Shown here: one piece after another, positions 4,461 through 36,166 of the stretch
How the letters are laid out: each line of letters starts with the position of its first letter
Numbering within the stretch: position 1 is the stretch's first letter
Virus record (IMG/VR): IMGVR_UViG_3300045988_053152
Location: 1 to 36,166 of that record
DNA: 36,166 nucleotides
Source of the DNA: a virus
Strand: one strand, 5' to 3'
Program-made: the position numbers and the translations under genes
The notes under the pieces: model-generated
Databases searched by the model: none
What the model saw: only the letters and a program-made list of their open reading frames with translations
What the model was told of the DNA's origin: nothing

Positions 4461-5015
4461 TTATTCGAATTCTGAAATGTCGGCTGCTGCCGCTTCTGCT
4501 TCTGCTTCTTCTGCGGCCTTCTTTGCTGCTCTAGTAGCTGCGGCCTTCTTTGCGGCTGCGCTGCGTTTTGCTGCGGCAATTTCCTCCTCGGTAGGTTCTG
4601 TTACTTCCGATTCTGTTACTTCCGATTCTGTTACTTCCGGTTCTGTTACTTCCGATTCTGTTACTTCCGGCTCGGTTACTTCCGGCTCGGCCTGTTCCGG
4701 CTCGGCCTGTTCCGGAATAGTGGTAACCACAGCGTCCAGGTCGATAAAGTAATCTTTATATTCCGGGTTCGCCTCCATTAGTTCAATGGCTTTTGCGTCG
4801 TCGCAATTAAATGCGCGATATACTTTCCCGTCCTCGTATGATGTAATCGACAAGTCCGGTTTCATCACATAACGAGTGTGTTTCCCGGTCAAGTACTCAT
4901 TCTCATACCATTGTGCGGCGAACTGTCTGTCAAAACCGCATGAGTCCTCTAACTTTAAATTAGTCATGCGCACACACAGCGCCAAAATCTGTCCAATATC
5001 TTGTAATCTTTCCAT
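4461..5015 (-). CDS. Acidic repeat protein: (E/S)(P/E)EVT pentapeptide repeats plus an Ala/Lys-rich tail. Function unknown.
   Basis: 184-aa ORF with a globular N-terminal ~100 aa, then EPEQAEPEQAEPEVTEPEVTESEVT... encoded by 8 tandem 15-nt units. Confidence 0.7.
   Translation of the reverse strand: MERLQDIGQILALCVRMTNLKLEDSCGFDRQFAAQWYENEYLTGKHTRYVMKPDLSITSYEDGKVYRAFNCDDAKAIELMEANPEYKDYFIDLDAVVTTIPEQAEPEQAEPEVTEPEVTESEVTEPEVTESEVTESEVTEPTEEEIAAAKRSAAAKKAAATRAAKKAAEEAEAEAAAADISEFE
4596..4715. repeat. Tandem repeat, 15 nt x 8 (in frame, inside CDS 4461..5015)
   Basis: ttctgttacttccga-type units at 4596, 4611, 4626, 4641, 4656, 4671, 4686 and 4701, read directly. Confidence 0.9.
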
Positions 5016-17683: not shown

Positions 17684-17834
17684 CGAATTCTAGTTGTTCC
17701 ACTTGTTCGTAAAATAGCCACTCTTGTTCATCGGTCCCGTCGTACTGTACCACGACGCCCAATACATCGGCCTCCAATACCGTTCCGGTTCTTCCGTCCT
17801 CGGTAACCTGCACACGCTCGTATATCTGTATCAT
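17664..17834 (-). CDS. Small acidic ORF (56 aa) coupled to the terL stop
   Basis: Hand translation gives MIQIYERVQVTEDGRTGTVLEADVLGVVVQYDGTDEQEWLFYEQVEQLEFDEYEYE. The ATG overlaps the terL TGA (ATGA). It fills an otherwise empty 147-nt gap and is below the ORF-track size cutoff. Confidence 0.45.
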   Translation of the reverse strand: MIQIYERVQVTEDGRTGTVLEADVLGVVVQYDGTDEQEWLFYEQVEQLEFDEYEYE

Positions 17835-19000
17835 TGTGCGGCGGCTTTAGGTCGGTACTTCCGGATAAGGAAATCAACGCCGTAACGGATAGCGTCCCAT
17901 GCATGGTTAAAGTTATCTATCGGCTCGTTCGTGAACGTGTCGGTCATCTCGTCCTTGACGTAGGAATAATTATCCGCCTCATCCAGGATATCCGCGCTAC
18001 GCTTCGTTACGTGCAACTTGAACTGCTTCACCTGCTGAATGCCCGCCTTGACAGAACCTTTGCCCTTTACACACGGGATTGTCTTACAGCCGTGCTGCCG
18101 TATCTCCACGATACTTTTCTGCTCGGCGCTGTCGCACACGGTATATACATTTTGCAGCCCGTAGTCCTTAAGCGTGTCCGCTATCGTGCGGTTCAGCATT
18201 TTGGTACGGTAGCACACTTCGTCTATGTACAGGTCCCAACCTCGCATGTAGATATCGACAATTGCGGTAGGGTCGTTCTGAAAGCCGAAATCAAGCCCTA
18301 CACAGCGTTTTGTATCCTCGCCCGTTAAGAAGTCCGGCAACGCCTCAATAACCTCAATTTCGGGATATACAAGGCCTTCAAGCCCGCCCGTTTGTCCTTC
18401 TCCATACACGCGCCACCAGTTAGGGTCCTTGGCGTTGCGTTCAATAGCCTCAATTTGTTGTTCCGTCAAGAACGGGTTATCCTTGTACGTCGAGTGGATA
18501 GTAACGTACTTGTCCCCTACAAAATCGGTCTCGCCCCAAAATCTTCGGACGGGGTTAAAGTCGATAATCACCTTCAGCCTGGTACGTACATCCAATTGGC
18601 GGAATATCTCCCTGGGTATCCTTTGCGCCTCGTTGATGAACAATATATCGCGCGCCGGACCGTGCACCTTGGCCGCACTGTCGCACCCGAAAAACTCGAT
18701 ATAAACGCCTTCCTTGACGGTGTATATCATATCGGACTTGTTGAACGCGCTGTCCTCCCATACCCCTTCGTCAATCAGCATATTAGTGAAGTCACGGAGC
18801 ATGCCGCGCTTGACTGCCGGCAGCGTGTCGGTTACGCAACTGATCATTAACGGCTCGGGACTTTCCCGCGCTATCAGGTAAAGCAGCTGTAAGGTGCTCC
18901 ACGTCTTTGAGGAACGCGTACCGCCCTTACTTGCAATTCCGCGAATGGCGGGATCCATTAGCGGCTCTATCATTTTATCGAATACATATGTACACCTCAT
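17831..19000 (-). CDS. terL: Terminase large subunit (PBSX/Terminase_3-like)
   Basis: 389 aa with an N-terminal ATPase P-loop variant (GGTRSSKTWS) and a C-terminal nuclease-like half. It abuts the small-subunit gene with no gap. Confidence 0.8.
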   Translation of the reverse strand: MRCTYVFDKMIEPLMDPAIRGIASKGGTRSSKTWSTLQLLYLIARESPEPLMISCVTDTLPAVKRGMLRDFTNMLIDEGVWEDSAFNKSDMIYTVKEGVYIEFFGCDSAAKVHGPARDILFINEAQRIPREIFRQLDVRTRLKVIIDFNPVRRFWGETDFVGDKYVTIHSTYKDNPFLTEQQIEAIERNAKDPNWWRVYGEGQTGGLEGLVYPEIEVIEALPDFLTGEDTKRCVGLDFGFQNDPTAIVDIYMRGWDLYIDEVCYRTKMLNRTIADTLKDYGLQNVYTVCDSAEQKSIVEIRQHGCKTIPCVKGKGSVKAGIQQVKQFKLHVTKRSADILDEADNYSYVKDEMTDTFTNEPIDNFNHAWDAIRYGVDFLIRKYRPKAAAQ

Positions 19001-19708
19001 TTAACCCCCTTTTCCTTCGTTTTCCGAGCCTTTGTGCTCTTTCTTGAACTCCTTTAGCTTTTGCACCCTTGAGACCGTCCTGGGGTCTGAAACCTGTATT
19101 GTGAGGCCTCCCTTAATCTCCTTGCCTCCTGTGGTGTAATCGAGTGCGGTTTTGTGCCCTCTCAATGCGCGGATGTAGTTAGGGTCGAATACCTGCGCGG
19201 CCGCGCCGGCGTCCATATCCTGGAATATCATTTGCCGGATATTGTCAATTGCCTCAGCGAACGCCTTAGAGGCCTCTATGCCGAACTCCTTATAGTTGTC
19301 CTCGTATATCCGGCGACGGTCCGCCAAATAGTTGGGCGCCGCGCCAAGGAACGCGCAAAAGTCCGTTTCGGTCATCAGGCGCTTTCTTGGAATCTCTAGC
19401 AGCGTGCCTGCCATGTTACCGGACTTAACGACGTCAACCGCAATAATAGGGTGCCTATCTATCCAATCCTGGTACATGTTAAAGGCGGCAAGCAAATCTT
19501 CCGGCTCTTGCCATATAGGAACCTTCCCCCACCGTCGGCGGCATATCTGAAACACGCTGTTACAGCCGTTTTCTTCTGCCGGGTCTAGGCGCGTGCGGGA
19601 TTTCTCGAGCCGCGCCTGCGAGACCACATTTATCGCCACTCCGTCCGGCCCTCGTTCCACCAATGGGGCGGGCGCTTTTTCGTTCTTATCTTCTTTTGAA
19701 TTTTTCAT
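19001..19708 (-). CDS. terS: Terminase small subunit (probable)
   Basis: 235 aa, immediately upstream of terL. The segment TETDFCAFLGAAPNYLADRR resembles the DNA-binding core of small terminases. Confidence 0.6.
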   Translation of the reverse strand: MKNSKEDKNEKAPAPLVERGPDGVAINVVSQARLEKSRTRLDPAEENGCNSVFQICRRRWGKVPIWQEPEDLLAAFNMYQDWIDRHPIIAVDVVKSGNMAGTLLEIPRKRLMTETDFCAFLGAAPNYLADRRRIYEDNYKEFGIEASKAFAEAIDNIRQMIFQDMDAGAAAQVFDPNYIRALRGHKTALDYTTGGKEIKGGLTIQVSDPRTVSRVQKLKEFKKEHKGSENEGKGG

Positions 19709-19738
19709 ACATTAAAATTGCTTCTCATTTATTGACAA

Positions 19739-19746
19739 CAAATATA
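19739..19746 (-). promoter_or_regulatory. Candidate late promoter, -7 box TATATTTG, upstream of terS
   Basis: The reverse complement of caaatata fits TAnnTTTG and lies 31 nt upstream of the terS ATG. The nearest TTTG is only 13 nt upstream, which is atypical spacing. Confidence 0.4.
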
Positions 19747-19796
19747 TGGCTTTCCCGCCCAAAAATAGGGCTAAATGCCTATAATTGCATCTTGTG

Positions 19797-20191
19797 TCAC
19801 TTAACTATCTGATTATCAAGTTATAAGGTTTTTGTGTCATCAATGTCACATATGAATAATGCCACCTAACGTACTGTGGCACAGCGAGTTAACCCCAAAC
19901 GTCACAGATTCACAGATGTTTTCCTATTAGATAAAAACAAGAATATTACTACCTCAATTTAATATCAATTAACCTATACTAATATATATCAATTCACAAT
20001 ATTAATAATCATCTTTTTTATCTCTATACAATATATCTATGACATCTATGACATTAGTACTAACTATAAGTAATTCAGTAAGTTAGGCGTCACAGTAAAA
20101 AATCCTTAATTAATGATGCAAAAAGTTTGTAGTCTGATTATCAATGACTTAAGCGTCGTAAACGAGTGTCAAAGATGATTTTTATTGTAAA
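19797..20191. repeat. Boundary module copy B (direct repeat of 1143-1446, with extra insertions)
   Basis: See the copy A alignment. Copy B carries about 55 extra nt (around 19856-19900) that include TGCCAC-N10-GTGGCA (19860-19881), and a longer AT-rich core (69 vs 45 nt). Confidence 0.85.
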
Positions 20192-20199
20192 GGTAAATT

Positions 20200-20505
20200 A
20201 GTAGAACTTTTGGTCAAAACGTTAGTAAAACAGCCCTTTTCGAGCATTCTCCCAAAAAACTTTTTGCCGAAATGACACCTTATGCATTTTCTCTCAAAAA
20301 ACTTTTTTGTCAAAAGGTTAGTAAACTCGCATTTTCGCCCGAAAAGTACGTTTTTCAAAATGTCGCACAAAAAATTTTGTGGATTTCAATTTAGCATCAA
20401 TTAACTATGTTTACTAACGTTTTGACAAAAAACTTTTCTCTCAAAATCTTTGCTTTATGATAAAAACCACATTCGCAAAGTTTTTTGAGAGAAAAGTTTT
20501 CTAAG
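20200..20505. promoter_or_regulatory. Motif-dense noncoding region (candidate operator array, origin or terminator complex)
   Basis: GTCAAAA(C/G)GTTAGTAAA at 20213-20230 and 20309-20326, and inverted at 20409-20426. TTTTGAGAGAAAAGTTTT-type motif at 20481-20500, inverted at 20287-20308 and 20429-20446, and degenerate at 20246-20266. Confidence 0.6.
20429..20500 (-). terminator. Long inverted repeat (~24-bp stem, 21-nt loop) 5 nt after the last early gene; candidate strong terminator
   Basis: 20429-20453 pairs with 20475-20500 (6 bp, a small internal loop, then 18 bp). On the minus-strand RNA the stem ends in UUUU followed by UUGUC. Confidence 0.45.
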
Positions 20506-21078
20506 TCATTCCACTACTTTTCCGTTAATATCTCGTGGAATGAACCCATATTTACCCGCCCATTCGCGTAAATTTTCGTTACGACACCTTAACGCCCCGC
20601 ACGGTTCCCGTTTTTCCCACTTGTGAAACTGCCACATCCATTCGTCCAGGGATACCGTTCCGTCTCTATAATAGTTAAGGCGGTAAACCGGGTTTGACTC
20701 TACCCGCCCCCTATACTTTAGCTTCCATGTTCCCGGGCACCACATTCGCGGGATATCCCCCGTATTGAACTTATCCAGGCGTTCGCGTTCCGGGTTCTTT
20801 AACAGCATTGTTTCAATGGTCGGTATCCTGTTTGGCTCGGTACGTGTGTTCCTGTCATCACGGACTGTCGCAATCTCATATATGATTTGCGGCAGCGCCT
20901 CGCATACCGCCATTGCGTTAACTAGGTTGTAAGGGAAACCCTTCGCTTTCCGGTAATAAATGCCGTTCGCCTTGAAGAACTTGAAAAGGAAGAACTCATT
21001 TACATTGAGTATCGTCGCTAGGTCTTCAACTACGAATTCTAGCGGTTTCTTTCTGCACTCTGATTGTTTTTGTCCCAT
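20506..21078 (-). CDS. Hypothetical protein, last gene of the early module (possible DNA-binding protein or late regulator)
   Basis: 190-aa ORF. The N-terminal segment DLATILNVNEFFLFKFFKANGI is HTH-like. The regulator idea comes from its position only. Confidence 0.55.
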   Translation of the reverse strand: MGQKQSECRKKPLEFVVEDLATILNVNEFFLFKFFKANGIYYRKAKGFPYNLVNAMAVCEALPQIIYEIATVRDDRNTRTEPNRIPTIETMLLKNPERERLDKFNTGDIPRMWCPGTWKLKYRGRVESNPVYRLNYYRDGTVSLDEWMWQFHKWEKREPCGALRCRNENLREWAGKYGFIPRDINGKVVE

Positions 21079-27357: not shown

Positions 27358-27388
27358 CAAAGATACGGATACTTTTCGGACTACAAAA
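27358..27388 (-). promoter_or_regulatory. Early promoter P2: -7 TATCTTTG, -33 TTTTG, 18-nt spacer
   Basis: ttgacacttcaaagatacggatacttttcggactacaaaac aligns with P1 and P3. The upstream motif here is GTCAAAACATTA instead of TTTTGAGAGAAAA. Confidence 0.6.
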
Positions 27389-29316: not shown

Positions 29317-29347
29317 CAAAGATACGGATACTTTTTGAACTACAAAA
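29317..29347 (-). promoter_or_regulatory. Early promoter P3: -7 TATCTTTG, -33 TTTTG, 18-nt spacer
   Basis: 29304-29327 is identical to 1007-1030 (24 nt), and ttttgaactacaaaac is identical to P1. Upstream lies TTTTGAGAAAAAAAACTTT, with the inverted repeat CTACAAA...TTTGTAG. Confidence 0.6.
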
Positions 29348-29487
29348 CTTTTTGAGAAAAAAAACTTTGTAGATTTAACATAAATAAAGAAAAGGAAACG
29401 TTTCGCAACGTCTCCCCTCTGAACTGTAAACCCCTTAAATTAGTAGTTGATTGAAATGAAATTGAGTAGTATTTGATTCTCTCTTTG

Positions 29488-33894: not shown

Positions 33895-33933
33895 TTAAAA
33901 AATAAGGCCCACCCGCTTCTACTCGGGCGGACC
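33895..33933 (-). terminator. Intrinsic terminator/attenuator after the SSB gene
   Basis: Minus-strand RNA GGUCCGCCCG-AGUAGAAG-CGGGUGGGCC (10-bp stem, 2 G-U pairs), followed by UUAUUUUUU. It lies only ~20 nt before the polymerase ATG. Confidence 0.6.
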
Positions 33934-33997
33934 TCGCACATTTGTTATAAAATAAAATCGGTTAATAAAAAATTATTTAATAAACTCTGTAAAAATG

Positions 33998-34561
33998 TTA
34001 TTCGAAATCACTCAATCCGTTATCACTTCCTCCTTCATCGTCGAAGTCGTTAACGCTTGCACCTCCGTCTAATCGGTCGTCGTCTACAACTTTTTGTATC
34101 CCGTTGAGTCCAACGCCGACCCCGCAACTGTTGGCGGATTTAAAGTACGAAAACAAACTTAGTGATGCGGTTCCCCATGAACCCGAATACATATCTTCTT
34201 TATCCGTTATCGGCTGTTTATGCTTGTCGATAACAATAGGTTTTCCGTTCTTCTCCTGTCTCTTGGCGTTAAGTACAAACATACCTTCATACCCTTCGTC
34301 GCCTTTCTTATCGCCGTCCGTTAGCGGGTTTCTCCAATCTTCCGGAAGGTTCCCCTTGAATTTCGGGTTGCTTGCCAAAAATTCATCTGCAAGTTCCTTG
34401 AGTGCTCTCTTAATCTCGTTAACCTGCAATGTGTCGGTTTTCGGGATAAGTACTGATACACTGTAATAGTTGGTATTCCCGTCCATGATAGGCGCGGCTT
34501 CGAATACTCTTACATAGGAAAATCTCACATTTTTTAGAATCAATTTCTTACTCTTACTCAT
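33998..34561 (-). CDS. ssb: Single-stranded DNA-binding protein (DUF2815-like phage SSB)
   Basis: 187 aa. It sits between the Cas4-like nuclease and the polymerase, as in known DUF2800/DUF2815 modules. It has a Gly/Asp-rich acidic C-terminal tail ending in GLSDFE. Confidence 0.65.
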   Translation of the reverse strand: MSKSKKLILKNVRFSYVRVFEAAPIMDGNTNYYSVSVLIPKTDTLQVNEIKRALKELADEFLASNPKFKGNLPEDWRNPLTDGDKKGDEGYEGMFVLNAKRQEKNGKPIVIDKHKQPITDKEDMYSGSWGTASLSLFSYFKSANSCGVGVGLNGIQKVVDDDRLDGGASVNDFDDEGGSDNGLSDFE

Positions 34562-34595
34562 AATTTTTAAATTTTAATTGGTTTTTAATTCGACT

Positions 34596-34603
34596 CAAAG
34601 ATA
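34596..34603 (-). promoter_or_regulatory. Candidate internal promoter P4 for ssb, -7 box TATCTTTG
   Basis: The reverse complement of caaagata, 34 nt upstream of the ssb ATG. An imperfect -33 (TTGTG) lies 18 nt upstream. Confidence 0.45.
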
Positions 34604-34651
34604 TGGTTTTATTTTTATATCTCACAATCCTTTTACTTATTTTAATATTTG

Positions 34652-35824
34652 TTAGCTTTCGATGTCGAAATCGCTTAGGGCGTTAATCTCGTCCCCTGGC
34701 GCGCTATCCGGAACTAACTTAGGTTTGCCCGGTTTGGACTGAACGTACTGTCCGTACTTGGCGGAAAACACTTTCTTTCCCACCAATTTTTCCAAGTCTC
34801 CGATACCTTTCAGCTTGATGTTAAATACCTCGTCTTCCAGGTATTCCCGTAACAGGTCTTGCCGTATCGGTTCCTCATCCGTTATCACCCTGCTAGACCT
34901 TCCCGCTACCAGCTTGTACCCGTTCCACTTGTGGCCCCTTAGCGCCTCATCGTACACGTACTTGTTAACGCTTTCCAGCCAGCTCTTATAGCTGTCTATC
35001 TTACCGATAAGGTCGGTTATTTCCTCCTGTGTCAGTAGTTCCGGGTATTCGTACCGTTCGAAGTCCTGCATAACGTTTTCGTACTGTTTCCGGCATTGCG
35101 CCTTTACAGGGCAAAAGCCGCACCAATCACCTACCTTTTGCTCGCCTTCCCCGGCGAAAGCCCTCTTAGCTACAGGTTTTAGCACCTTATTAGCCCACTG
35201 CGTCAGGTCATTAACGGAGATTTCCCATGTATCGAAATGATGTAACCGTACTTGTGCAATGACCATTTTAACCTTCGTTATAGAGGGCTTTTTCTTAAGT
35301 GCTCCAAGCGCATACAACATCATCTGAGTATTGTTTTCCGCCTTCACCCTAACGCCTTCGCCGTACTTCAAATCGATAATTTCCAGGGTATCGTGTCCGA
35401 CTAATTGGCAGTCCACCGACCCGAAGCAGTCCGGCGCATATTCGGAAATGTCTACCCGCTCCTCTAGCAGCATCGCACACGCTCCGCCTGACTTTTCAAG
35501 GTTGTAGTTTTCATTCATCACGAAATCGCAGTAACTGCGGGCGTGCTTGAACATTTCGGGCTTGAATAGTGGGTGCATCAAGTGGTCGTCCTTAAGTGTC
35601 GGCAATTCTTCGCCGAACGGGTCCGGTTCCCATACACCCGCATTCCATTGGGCCAGGCAGTACTCGCAAATCTCGTGGAATAGGGTGCCTTCTTCAGCAT
35701 ACACGCTCGTTCCGTTTTCCACTTTTTCCGCTAGCCGGGCCGAGGGTGGACAATTCATCCAGCGGCCCGAGGAGCTAGGGGATAGTAAAGCGTGGTCCCT
35801 ATCTTTATGGTTTTGCGTCATCAT
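34652..35824 (-). CDS. PD-(D/E)XK Cas4-like exonuclease (DUF2800-like) with a 4-Cys cluster
   Basis: 390 aa. VDCQLV...LEIIDLKYG supplies D...(D/E)xK. An N-terminal Cys (MNCPPS) plus the C-terminal CGFCPVKAQC fit the Cas4/AddB Fe-S arrangement. Confidence 0.75.
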   Translation of the reverse strand: MMTQNHKDRDHALLSPSSSGRWMNCPPSARLAEKVENGTSVYAEEGTLFHEICEYCLAQWNAGVWEPDPFGEELPTLKDDHLMHPLFKPEMFKHARSYCDFVMNENYNLEKSGGACAMLLEERVDISEYAPDCFGSVDCQLVGHDTLEIIDLKYGEGVRVKAENNTQMMLYALGALKKKPSITKVKMVIAQVRLHHFDTWEISVNDLTQWANKVLKPVAKRAFAGEGEQKVGDWCGFCPVKAQCRKQYENVMQDFERYEYPELLTQEEITDLIGKIDSYKSWLESVNKYVYDEALRGHKWNGYKLVAGRSSRVITDEEPIRQDLLREYLEDEVFNIKLKGIGDLEKLVGKKVFSAKYGQYVQSKPGKPKLVPDSAPGDEINALSDFDIES

Positions 35825-36166
35825 AGGTTTTCCTCAATGTACTTGATAAAGTCGGCGAAATTCTCGGGTGCCAGGGTCGGGAAAGACGATGCCCCGACAT
35901 AGCCGAACGCGTCTTTGACAACCTCCCTACGGCCCTTGTTTAGCGCTTTCATGGCTACGGCCTTAGCCTCTTCCATAGTGTACGTTACCGGTTCCTTAGC
36001 TTGTTCCGGTTCCTTTACGGGTTCCTTAGCTTGTTCCGGTTCCTTTACGGGTTCCTTAGCTTGTTCCACTTCCTTAGGTTGTTCCGGTTCCTTAGGTTGT
36101 TCCGGTTCTGTCTTTACTTCCGGCGCGGCTTTCGTTCTACGTCCGGCGGGTTTTTTAGGTTCTTCC
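35821..36166 (-). CDS. C-terminal part of the junction-spanning CDS (see 1..309)
   Basis: The frame stays open from the window end down to the stop at 35821. The track start at 36069 is an internal GTG. Repeats are TEPEQPKEPEQPKE and (EQAKEPVKEP)x2.5, followed by a ~55-aa C-terminal domain. Confidence 0.7.
   Translation of the reverse strand, partial: EEPKKPAGRRTKAAPEVKTEPEQPKEPEQPKEVEQAKEPVKEPEQAKEPVKEPEQAKEPVTYTMEEAKAVAMKALNKGRREVVKDAFGYVGASSFPTLAPENFADFIKYIEENL
35991..36108. repeat. In-frame tandem repeats: 30 nt x ~2.5, then 18 nt x 2
   Basis: gttccttagcttgttccggttcctttacgg at 35991 and 36021, with a partial copy at 36051. ttccttaggttgttccgg at ~36070 and ~36088. Confidence 0.9.
36112..36166. 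repeat. Terminal 55-bp sequence identical to 1-55
   Basis: See feature 1-55. Confidence 0.95.

Follow-up and report, generated by a model that had tools for sequence, protein, structure and literature searches.

A putative early-operon terminator and a cluster of promoter upstream modules at the early/late gene boundary of a Bacteroides siphovirus

We analysed a window of 36,166 nucleotides, the whole stretch of the IMG/VR virus record IMGVR_UViG_3300045988_053152, and in it an array of two short repeated motifs with a long inverted repeat at positions 20200-20505. The record holds a complete, circularly assembled Bacteroides siphovirus genome of ~36.1 kb. Bases 1-55 are identical to 36112-36166, indicating an assembler overlap of a circular contig, and the unique genome is 36,111 bp long. 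All genes are oriented on the minus strand, which we refer to as the sense strand. The early/replication module runs from ~802 across the assembly junction down to 20506, and Pfam and PHROG searches identified a DUF2800 exonuclease, PolA, a VapE-type primase-helicase, an SNF2 helicase and a C5 methylase among its products. Its last gene (20506-21078, minus) encodes a protein of 190 amino acids (aa) that is 40% identical to BKR1 gp20, and ends with the stop codon TGA at 20508-20506. A 797-bp non-coding stretch (19709-20505, termed IG-B) separates this module from the terminase genes, with the small terminase TerS (19001-19708, minus; phrog_606, E = 1.8e-10, with a weak GP3_package match) as the first late gene, followed by the large terminase TerL (17831-19000, minus) and the structural genes beyond. 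By family match (Terminase_3, GP3_package), the terminase is of the headful type. Read in the direction of transcription, the array and its hairpin occupy the first 300 bp of IG-B.

The neighbourhood of IG-B is 72-90% identical to that of the Bacteroides caccae phages BC669P1-3 and BC679P1-5, and the gene order is common to the source genome and BKO1-1, BKR1, BK745P4 and BO668P1. BKO1-1 and BKR1 belong to one collection, where BKR1 is the representative of group 3 of the proposed siphovirus family 'Bacteroiduroviridae' (PMC12694917). The siphoviruses of ~36 kb considered here belong to that proposed family. The literature that we found on phages of this type reports only taxonomy and morphology, and gene regulation is not described. 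For comparison we assembled 20 distinct versions of IG-B from close relatives (GenBank and IMG/VR), which contain 12 distinct hairpin sequences.

Motif 1, GTCAAAASGTTAGTAAA, is present in three exact copies genome-wide, all inside the array, at 20213-20229 (plus), at 20309-20325 (plus) and, inverted and directly beyond the U tract of the hairpin, at 20410-20426 (minus). No further match with up to 3 mismatches was found in the 36 kb; 0.25 copies were expected by chance, and 0 of 100 shuffled sequences reached three. The sense strand of the first copy, TTTACTAACGTTTTGACCAAAAGTT, resembles TTAATGTTTTGACTAAAAGTT upstream of the early promoter P2. Motif 2, TTTTGAGAGAAAAGTTTT, occurs exactly twice (0.02 expected), at 20483-20500 (plus) and 20429-20446 (minus), and these copies form the 5' and 3' arms of the hairpin, respectively. 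The 5' arm reads AAAACTTTTCTCTCAAAA followed by AACTTTG on the sense strand, similar to an upstream (UP) element with a -33 box. A third copy at 20287-20305 (minus; sense AAAGTTTTTTGAGAGAAAA) is complementary over 19 nt, at 100%, to 20477-20495 and is kept in the 20 relatives, and a degenerate, conserved copy (94%) lies at 20247-20263 (minus; sense AAAGTTTTTTGGGAGAA).

Both motifs recur at the early promoters. A copy of motif 2 with 2 mismatches lies upstream of promoter P1 at 1053-1070, and the 12-mer core TTTCTCTCAAAA, present three times in the array, is found once upstream of P1 (1064) and with one mismatch at P3 (29361), and nowhere else. P2 has the core of motif 1, AATGTTTTGAC, in its upstream region (27405-27395). 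Globally, the array shares no excess of 10-mers with the rest of the genome (29 vs 30.5 ± 7.8 in shuffles). What is shared is specifically motif 2, or the -33 module, and not the region as a whole. Co-variation of the array motifs with the promoter motifs within individual genomes was not seen.

The three promoters are mutually paralogous and display the canonical Bacteroides layout of TTTG, 18 nt and TATCTTTG, with -7 boxes at 1027, 27365 and 29324. P1 (1020-1073, minus) consists of the module AAAGTTTTCTCTCAAAATGTTTTG at 1073-1046, the -33 TTTG at 1049-1046 and the -7 box TATCTTTG at 1027-1020. P2 (27358-27411, minus) reads TTAATGTTTTGACTAAAAGTTTTG and carries AATGTTTTGAC as a motif-1-like upstream element, while P3 (29317-29370, minus) reads AAAGTTTTTTTTCTCAAAAAGTTTTG and carries a motif-2-like module. 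At P1-P3, the array motifs recur between -38 and -60. The layout of motif 2 is A-tract/T-tract-CTCTC-A-tract-(G)-TTTTG, that is, a UP-like element plus -33 box, and motif 1 is the variant found at P2. The word AAAGTTTT occurs in nine sense-strand copies against 1.2 expected, seven of them at P1-P3 or in the array. The -7 core CGTATCTTTGWAGTGTC (1020-1036, 27358-27374 and 29317-29333, minus) is also present in otherwise unrelated viral contigs of 44-87 kb (loci L092-L146), where the promoters have TTTCTCTAAAAATTTTG upstream; this points to a strong promoter type widely shared among Bacteroides phages. Terminator-like hairpins with U tails were observed elsewhere in the early region at 29390-29419 and 33904-33935 (minus), the former directly upstream of P3, so that the order of terminator and motif-2 module recurs there. 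P1 is overlapped by a plus-strand open reading frame (ORF) at 938-1141, the only sizeable one on that strand that relatives annotate as a gene; it matches no Pfam family and is probably spurious.

We searched one genome per prokaryotic species for the pattern CTCAAAAWGTTTTG-N17-20-TAnnTTTG. At least 120 stretches were recovered, and among the matches listed nearly all were from Bacteroidota. The unforced bases just upstream in these matches formed an A-run (A = 0.59-0.69 at -8 to -6) and then a T-run, which is the layout of motif 2, and a tRNA gene (transfer RNA) lay immediately downstream on the same strand at at least 19 of the scanned host loci. A position weight matrix built from the 113 distinct host modules among the matches listed was then scanned along both strands of the genome (~72,000 positions). 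The 11 top-scoring sites were P1 (29.8, the best in the genome), P3 (25.9), P2, one site in a repeat that we call R, and seven sites of the array within 20279-20503, among them the motif 2 copy at 20483-20500 (11.2, the fourth best). The array is thus the densest cluster of host-type modules in the genome, with members in both orientations and without a -7 box. TAnnTTTG is absent from either strand of 20200-20505, and inspection by eye of both strands at 17-21 nt from any TTTG of the array found no -7 box, the best candidates being two pseudo-promoters with 5/6 matches, TACTTTTC at 20348-20341 and TACCTTTA near 20195. These and a DnaA-box-like word, AAATCCACA at ~20385-20377, were considered and rejected, as none is conserved in relatives.

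The resemblance to Bacteroidota sigma-ABfr promoters (PBfP1E6 and tRNA promoters) extends to the succession of A-run, T-run, CTC, AAAA, W, G and TTTTG, and to the position of the module at -33 to ~-55 of the phage promoters P1 and P3 and of many chromosomal promoters; the array copies differ in lacking TAnnTTTG at any spacing, in occurring in both orientations and in lying 100-330 bp away from the nearest promoter-like element. In the Bacteroides phage promoter PBfP1E6, UP elements have been recognised (bioRxiv 10.1101/2025.03.18.644028). An earlier reading of the window from its letters and open reading frames only, referred to here as the sequence-only reading, had described both motifs. Its positions for motif 1 were correct to within a nucleotide (the inverted copy starts at 20410 and not at 20409), and the relative of motif 1 that it saw upstream of P2 is indeed there. 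For motif 2, corrections of 1-2 nt were needed (start at 20483 instead of 20481, P1 copy at 1053-1070, P3 copy at ~29350-29362). The counts given above show both motifs far in excess of chance, and its claims are borne out that they are shared with the upstream regions of all three early promoters (core-word matches at P1-P3) and that the array has no good -7 box. The reading had gone on to suggest a regulator sink or operator array, or part of an origin. The motif cluster shared with the early promoters is real, but motif 2 is, as judged from its layout and occurrence, a generic upstream/-33 module of strong Bacteroidota promoters, and not a phage-specific or private operator. We therefore prefer to describe the array as a cluster of promoter front halves, which could be read by RNA polymerase or by a reader of the module.

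The inverted repeat is real; it has 18 perfectly complementary nucleotides and extends to a hairpin of ~31 bp (20427-20502, minus), a putative intrinsic terminator of the early/replication operon. Its main stem pairs 20502-20483 with 20446-20427, a second helix pairs 20480-20475 with 20453-20448, and an apical helix pairs 20471-20466 with 20461-20456. Folding of the sense RNA from 20502 to 20427 gave -38.4 kcal/mol, compared to -15.9 ± 3.2 for shuffled sequences (z = -7.13). The 3' foot is a U6 tract (20427-20432, minus), read as TTTTTT and followed by G, which is invariant in 19 of the 20 relatives and shortened to U5 in L019. The hairpin starts 3 nt past the stop codon of the last early gene, in the same orientation, and TerS lies ~720 bp further on. 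At gathering score, Rfam gave no match anywhere in the window, where only generic microRNA-precursor hairpin models were hit below threshold, and no tRNA or transfer-messenger RNA was found in the window.

Both long arms of the hairpin are invariant in the close relatives, and its interior is variable. Across the 12 distinct hairpins, 99.5% of the cells of the pair table remain paired. All five apical pairs (5/5) vary, and 98.3% of those cells are still paired; by count from the pair table, 27 of the 60 apical cells are G-U, and the opposite strand, or an antisense RNA, would have C-A mismatches at these places. Covariation was assessed with a further clade added, whose TerS is 79% identical. 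There, the arms read CTTTCTTCTC/GAGAAGAAAG in place of CTTTTCTCTC/GAGAGAAAAG, and two pairs of the main stem change between the clades, one from U-A to C-G and its neighbour from C-G through U-G to U-A, the U-G wobble intermediate being found in four sequences. With the two clades pooled, 98.6% of the cells are paired, as against 95.6 ± 0.5 in shuffles (0/500), and the covariation score is 0.209 vs 0.145 (0/500). Controls in which the pairing was slid gave 44-62%.

In distant clades (TerS 43-50% identical), the homologous spot lies 8 nt past the stop codon of the homologous last early gene and holds a structure of one of two types. The first, GAGGGGTTAATG-loop-CGTTAACCCCTT followed by TTTG, is called a terminator by a simple scan (13 pairs, 6-nt loop). 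The second is AAAAAGCGTG-loop-CACGCTTTTT, with arms that covary (AGTCGTG/TGCGACT, AAGCGTG/CACGCTT, GTCACC/GGTGAC). In phages of the BK745P4 type, the homologous site is a short GC-rich canonical terminator. Position provides the strongest argument for a terminator, as canonical terminators stand at the homologous site in distant clades.

Taken together, the position, the stability, the U-run, the pairing specific to the sense strand and the canonical terminators at homologous sites in relatives suggest that the palindrome most likely works as an RNA hairpin on the early transcript, as an intrinsic terminator. This agrees with the sequence-only reading, which had seen a long palindrome with a very stable fold and a U-run and had proposed a terminator of the early operon. 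The same reading had offered a dimer-binding operator as the alternative, and here the data point the other way, because the G-U pairs and compensatory swaps are specific to the sense strand and speak for RNA. Known intrinsic terminators, above all those of the A-tract/hairpin/U-tract type, resemble the element in having a stable hairpin right after the last stop codon of an operon, a U run, and compensatory or wobble changes on the transcript strand. They differ in that the stem here is AU-rich and ~31 bp long, has two internal loops, spans ~76 nt and is built of an inverted promoter-upstream module.

Conservation of the array follows its motifs. Across the 20 relatives, the motif columns are conserved and the spacers are not, least of all the array centre at 20330-20400 (0.39-0.63, the lowest conservation of the region). 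The conserved columns are the hairpin arms, AAGTTTTTTGAGAG at 20305-20292, AAAAGTTTTTTG.GAGAA at 20266-20248 and TTTACTAACGTTTTG at 20229-20215. In BC669P2, BC669P3, BC679P5, L022 and L024 the centre is deleted and tandem 16-bp GAGAGAAAAGTTTTTT units stand in its place. Every clade has 2-6 copies of a 16-bp tandem unit of the form GAGAG-A4-[G/C]-T5-6 beyond the terminator, and even distant clades with a different terminator sequence then have CTTCTCAAAAAACTTTGTGAGAGAAAACTTTTTAGAGAGAAAG, the same kind of 16-bp unit, and TTTTTGACAAAAAAGT. The centre of the module is flipped between clades, CTCTC vs GAGAG. This pattern indicates that the array is kept as a kind of sequence, independently of the hairpin, with drift in copy number and arrangement. 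A 62-aa ORF on the minus strand (20182-20370) was rejected as a coding sequence, since its reading frame is not conserved; BC679P1 and BC679P4 lack it, six relatives have lost its 5' part, others have it truncated or in another frame, and its starts are TTG only. The ORF is thus a by-product of the DNA repeats, as had been supposed from the sequence.

The remainder of IG-B contains the direct repeat R, ~290 bp long and 86-89% identical between its copies (20016-20191 vs 1271-1446, and 19901-19946 vs 1180-1225). One copy precedes the late operon and the other follows it, the latter just upstream of P1. Both are present in every family member examined, with 75-82% identity within a genome. Just downstream of the array, R contains a promoter-like element (20090-20122, minus) with TTTG at 20122-20119, 21 nt and TACTGTGA, and in BO668P1 and BK745P4 the homologous site is a canonical TTTG-N20-TATCTTTG promoter. 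The three AT-richest 100-bp windows of the genome (18-19% GC) are 19934-20033, 1204-1303 and 34560-34659. The first, at 18% GC the genome minimum, lies inside R ~200 bp from the array, and its duplicate is the second. In both copies of R, the AT-rich segment comes just past the promoter-like element and could possibly serve as an unwinding element or as a long AT-rich leader.

Other features of this intergenic DNA were also recorded. A tandem repeat, ATCTATGAC (2.2 copies), is present in both copies of R, at 20035-20054 and 1290-1309. Eight of the 14 sense copies of TGTGAC fall in the two large intergenic regions (20094, 19906, 19850, 1428, 1349, 1185, 1130 and 1111, minus). Distant relatives have TTTGACA or TTTTACA at these sites, changing together within a genome, which suggests that they are sites of a co-evolving DNA-binding protein. 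The near-palindromic 12-mer TTGATAATCAGA occurs exactly at 20133-20144 and 19808-19819 and is invariant in relatives, and the related TGATTATCA lies at ~1162. The best conserved intergenic block in all clades, TTTGGGCGGGAAAGCCATATATTTG, is at 19739-19773 (minus), ~30 nt before the start of terS. Its -7 box is perfect, a TTTG lies at a distance of only 13 nt on the upstream side, and the interval holds a GC-rich box; the block may be a late promoter that requires an activator.

The 190-aa product of the last early gene has no Pfam, PHROG or PDB sequence match. Its homologues in distant relatives are 40% identical, and the gene always adjoins the terminator and array. An AlphaFold2 model (pLDDT 75) showed an N-terminal helical domain, a disordered linker (residues 74-107) and a C-terminal beta-rich domain. 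The N-terminal domain gave repeated, non-significant fold matches (E >= 0.2) to BldC (6amk, 6ama), Pukovnik Xis (4j2n) and MerR-like helix-turn-helix (HTH) proteins, a weak hint from the model that the protein may have an N-terminal Xis/MerR-like winged helix. The idea of an HNH endonuclease at a cos site was rejected for this gene, given the lack of an HNH signature and of any Pfam, PHROG or PDB match. A second candidate DNA-binding protein, of 62 aa (306-494), matches HTH_17 at 18.1 bits, below the Pfam cut-off of 27 bits. No sigma factor or RNA polymerase gene was found among the proteins of the window.

A few observations concern the genome at large. Related GenBank records have similar end overlaps, of 55 and 141 nt; as these are assembler overlaps, deriving the genome termini from the record ends of relatives was rejected. 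In-frame tandem repeats lie within coding DNA at 35985-36121 (periods of 18/30/48 nt), close to the beginning of the early region, and at 4596-4715 (periods of 15/45 nt), inside a 184-aa late gene (4461-5015).

From the motif statistics, the hairpin with its pattern of conservation, the identity of the module and the absence of -7 boxes, all of which are directly supported, we infer termination and protein binding at the early/late boundary. Early transcription would stop at the AU-rich ~31-bp hairpin with its U6 tract (20502-20427), whose arms are the inverted pair of motif 2 copies. The DNA that follows (20426-20200) would present promoter front halves in both orientations, which should bind protein but not fire because none has a -7 box. 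Their reader could be host RNA polymerase, through the alpha C-terminal domain or sigma region 4, or a phage protein that reads the same module. Bound in this way, the array would set the entry of transcription into the packaging and structural operon from the element in repeat R, ~100-330 bp downstream. As a whole, a terminator of the early operon joined to a docking platform of front halves lacking -7 boxes is the account that we consider probable, with the docking part held at much lower confidence than the terminator part.

A number of points weigh against this account. In the close clade alone, pairing was not significant against the shuffle control, and the evidence from covariation is modest, with some two independent events and the wobble changes behind it; if the inverted repeat were homogenised as DNA, the outcome could look like compensation. 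The source hairpin is not called by the simple terminator scan. Intrinsic terminators typically have a short GC-rich stem (~5-14 bp) with a small loop, and a stem of ~31 bp that is AU-rich, with two internal loops, a large interior and a total of ~76 nt, is atypical of them; in addition, the U tract is able to pair with the upstream A-run. As for the array, the host search fixed the core of the module, so that the at least 120 stretches listed speak for occurrence and not for enrichment. UP elements act at -40 to -60, and the array modules are not at -33 to -60 of any core promoter. The nearest promoter-like element is 100-330 bp off, and a classical UP role for the array is therefore unlikely.

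Among the other explanations, we regard as possible, though doubtful, an operator array in which an early protein, either the 190-aa protein encoded next to the array or the 62-aa HTH protein, binds the motifs at the early promoters and in the array and represses early and/or activates late transcription in the manner of phi29 p4. The motifs are common to the array and to P1-P3, where they lie at -38 to -60; conservation across clades extends to the array and to the neighbouring 190-aa gene alike; and the fold matches of the 190-aa protein, weak as they are, include winged helices of the Xis, BldC and MerR-like kinds, known for binding direct repeats in tandem. The 62-aa protein adds its weak HTH_17 match. 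However, the fold matches are non-significant, the HTH_17 score is below the cut-off, the module is generic to Bacteroidota promoters so that a phage factor is not needed, and the CTCTC/GAGAG centre is inverted between clades without an obvious change in a partner protein. This explanation also overlaps the terminator and docking platform that we favour, instead of excluding it. In the early/late switch of phi29, p4 and p6 sites, which are reiterated A/T-tract sites, lie between promoters A2c, A2b and A3, and host RNA polymerase is used. The array similarly places A/T-tract sites between early and late genes, with related sites at the early promoters, but no p4 or p6 homologue was found, the early and late genes are co-directional with a putative terminator between them, and protein binding at the array is putative. 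The winged helices of Xis and BldC offer a second parallel, namely tandem direct repeats of variable number beside a gene with weak BldC/Xis/MerR-like fold matches; against it, the matches are non-significant, there is no integrase or recombination context, and the 16-bp unit is a promoter module.

More speculative, and as a joint claim improbable, is a switch in which the 190-aa protein polymerises head to tail on tandem UP/-33 modules. At the early promoters, and perhaps at those of host tRNA genes, it would at the same time occlude the module, and it would govern whether transcription reads through the terminator or starts anew beyond it to enter the late operon. As an alternative, the array and repeat R, with its promoter-like element and AT-rich segment, would jointly form a transcription-primed origin, in two copies per genome.

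That the array is an origin of replication, with its units as iterons for a phage initiator (for example the VapE-type primase-helicase) beside an AT-rich unwinding element, appears unlikely. Copy number is variable, some relatives have the tandem 16-bp period, the array directly follows the replication genes, and ~200 bp downstream, just after the promoter-like element, come the AT-richest 100 bp (19934-20033, 18% GC). The primary origin of T7 has a promoter-plus-AT-rich layout, which the arrangement in repeat R resembles. Iteron origins such as lambda ori and SaPI ori resemble the locus in their short repeats of variable copy number next to replication genes and, less clearly, in their AT-rich stretch. 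However, the promoter module that makes up the repeat unit also occurs at P1 and P3, in unrelated phages and at host tRNA genes, which weakens the reading, as an initiator recognising it would not be origin-specific. In the source genome the copies are irregularly spaced and of mixed orientation, unlike a set of three or more regular, origin-specific direct repeats; no initiator was identified, and the AT-rich segment, as a part of repeat R, exists in two copies. GC skew, being monotonic, says nothing about an origin, because all genes are on one strand.

We give little weight to the proposal that the hairpin serves in RNA processing or stabilisation, for example as an RNase III site or as a stem protecting the 3' end in the way of T7 early mRNAs (messenger RNAs), instead of or besides termination. 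The unusually long duplex of ~31 bp with internal loops and the sense-strand-specific pairing would suit such a role; the U6 tail after the stem and the short canonical terminators that are its positional homologues in distant clades argue for termination.

It is similarly improbable that the array is evolutionary debris, that is, functionless promoter halves produced by slippage and recombination among promoter and terminator repeats. Copy number and arrangement do vary among phages that are 72-90% identical, the array centre is dispensable, and P1-P3 and repeat R show that dispersed repeats have recombined in the source genome. Neutral turnover accounts for this drift in copy number, but not for motif columns that are much better conserved than the spacers, nor for the same kind of array after the terminator in all clades, even with a different terminator sequence. 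A pac region bound by the small terminase encoded ~500 bp downstream is very unlikely, for although the array lies upstream of terS, has repeated A/T-tract boxes that can be likened to those of SPP1 pacL, and belongs to a circularly assembled genome with a headful-type terminase (Terminase_3, GP3_package), its motifs also occur outside it, at the three early promoters and in host genomes, and motif 2 hardly differs between clades in which TerS identity is as low as 43-50%.

The components of the locus are of known kinds, and what is undescribed is their arrangement, a conserved cluster of modules without -7 boxes at the early/late boundary, which is of modest interest. If the array were a mere product of recombination among promoter copies, the finding would be an ordinary one. 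Repeats of this kind produce spurious ORFs, a caution for annotation, and for synthetic biology in Bacteroides the locus offers a candidate strong terminator and a defined upstream module. For this group of abundant gut phages, the analysis provides a working regulatory map, with three host-type early promoters, a putative terminator between early and late genes and, behind it, a conserved cluster of promoter front halves, and raises the question of what role a cluster of UP/-33 modules without a -7 box may have.

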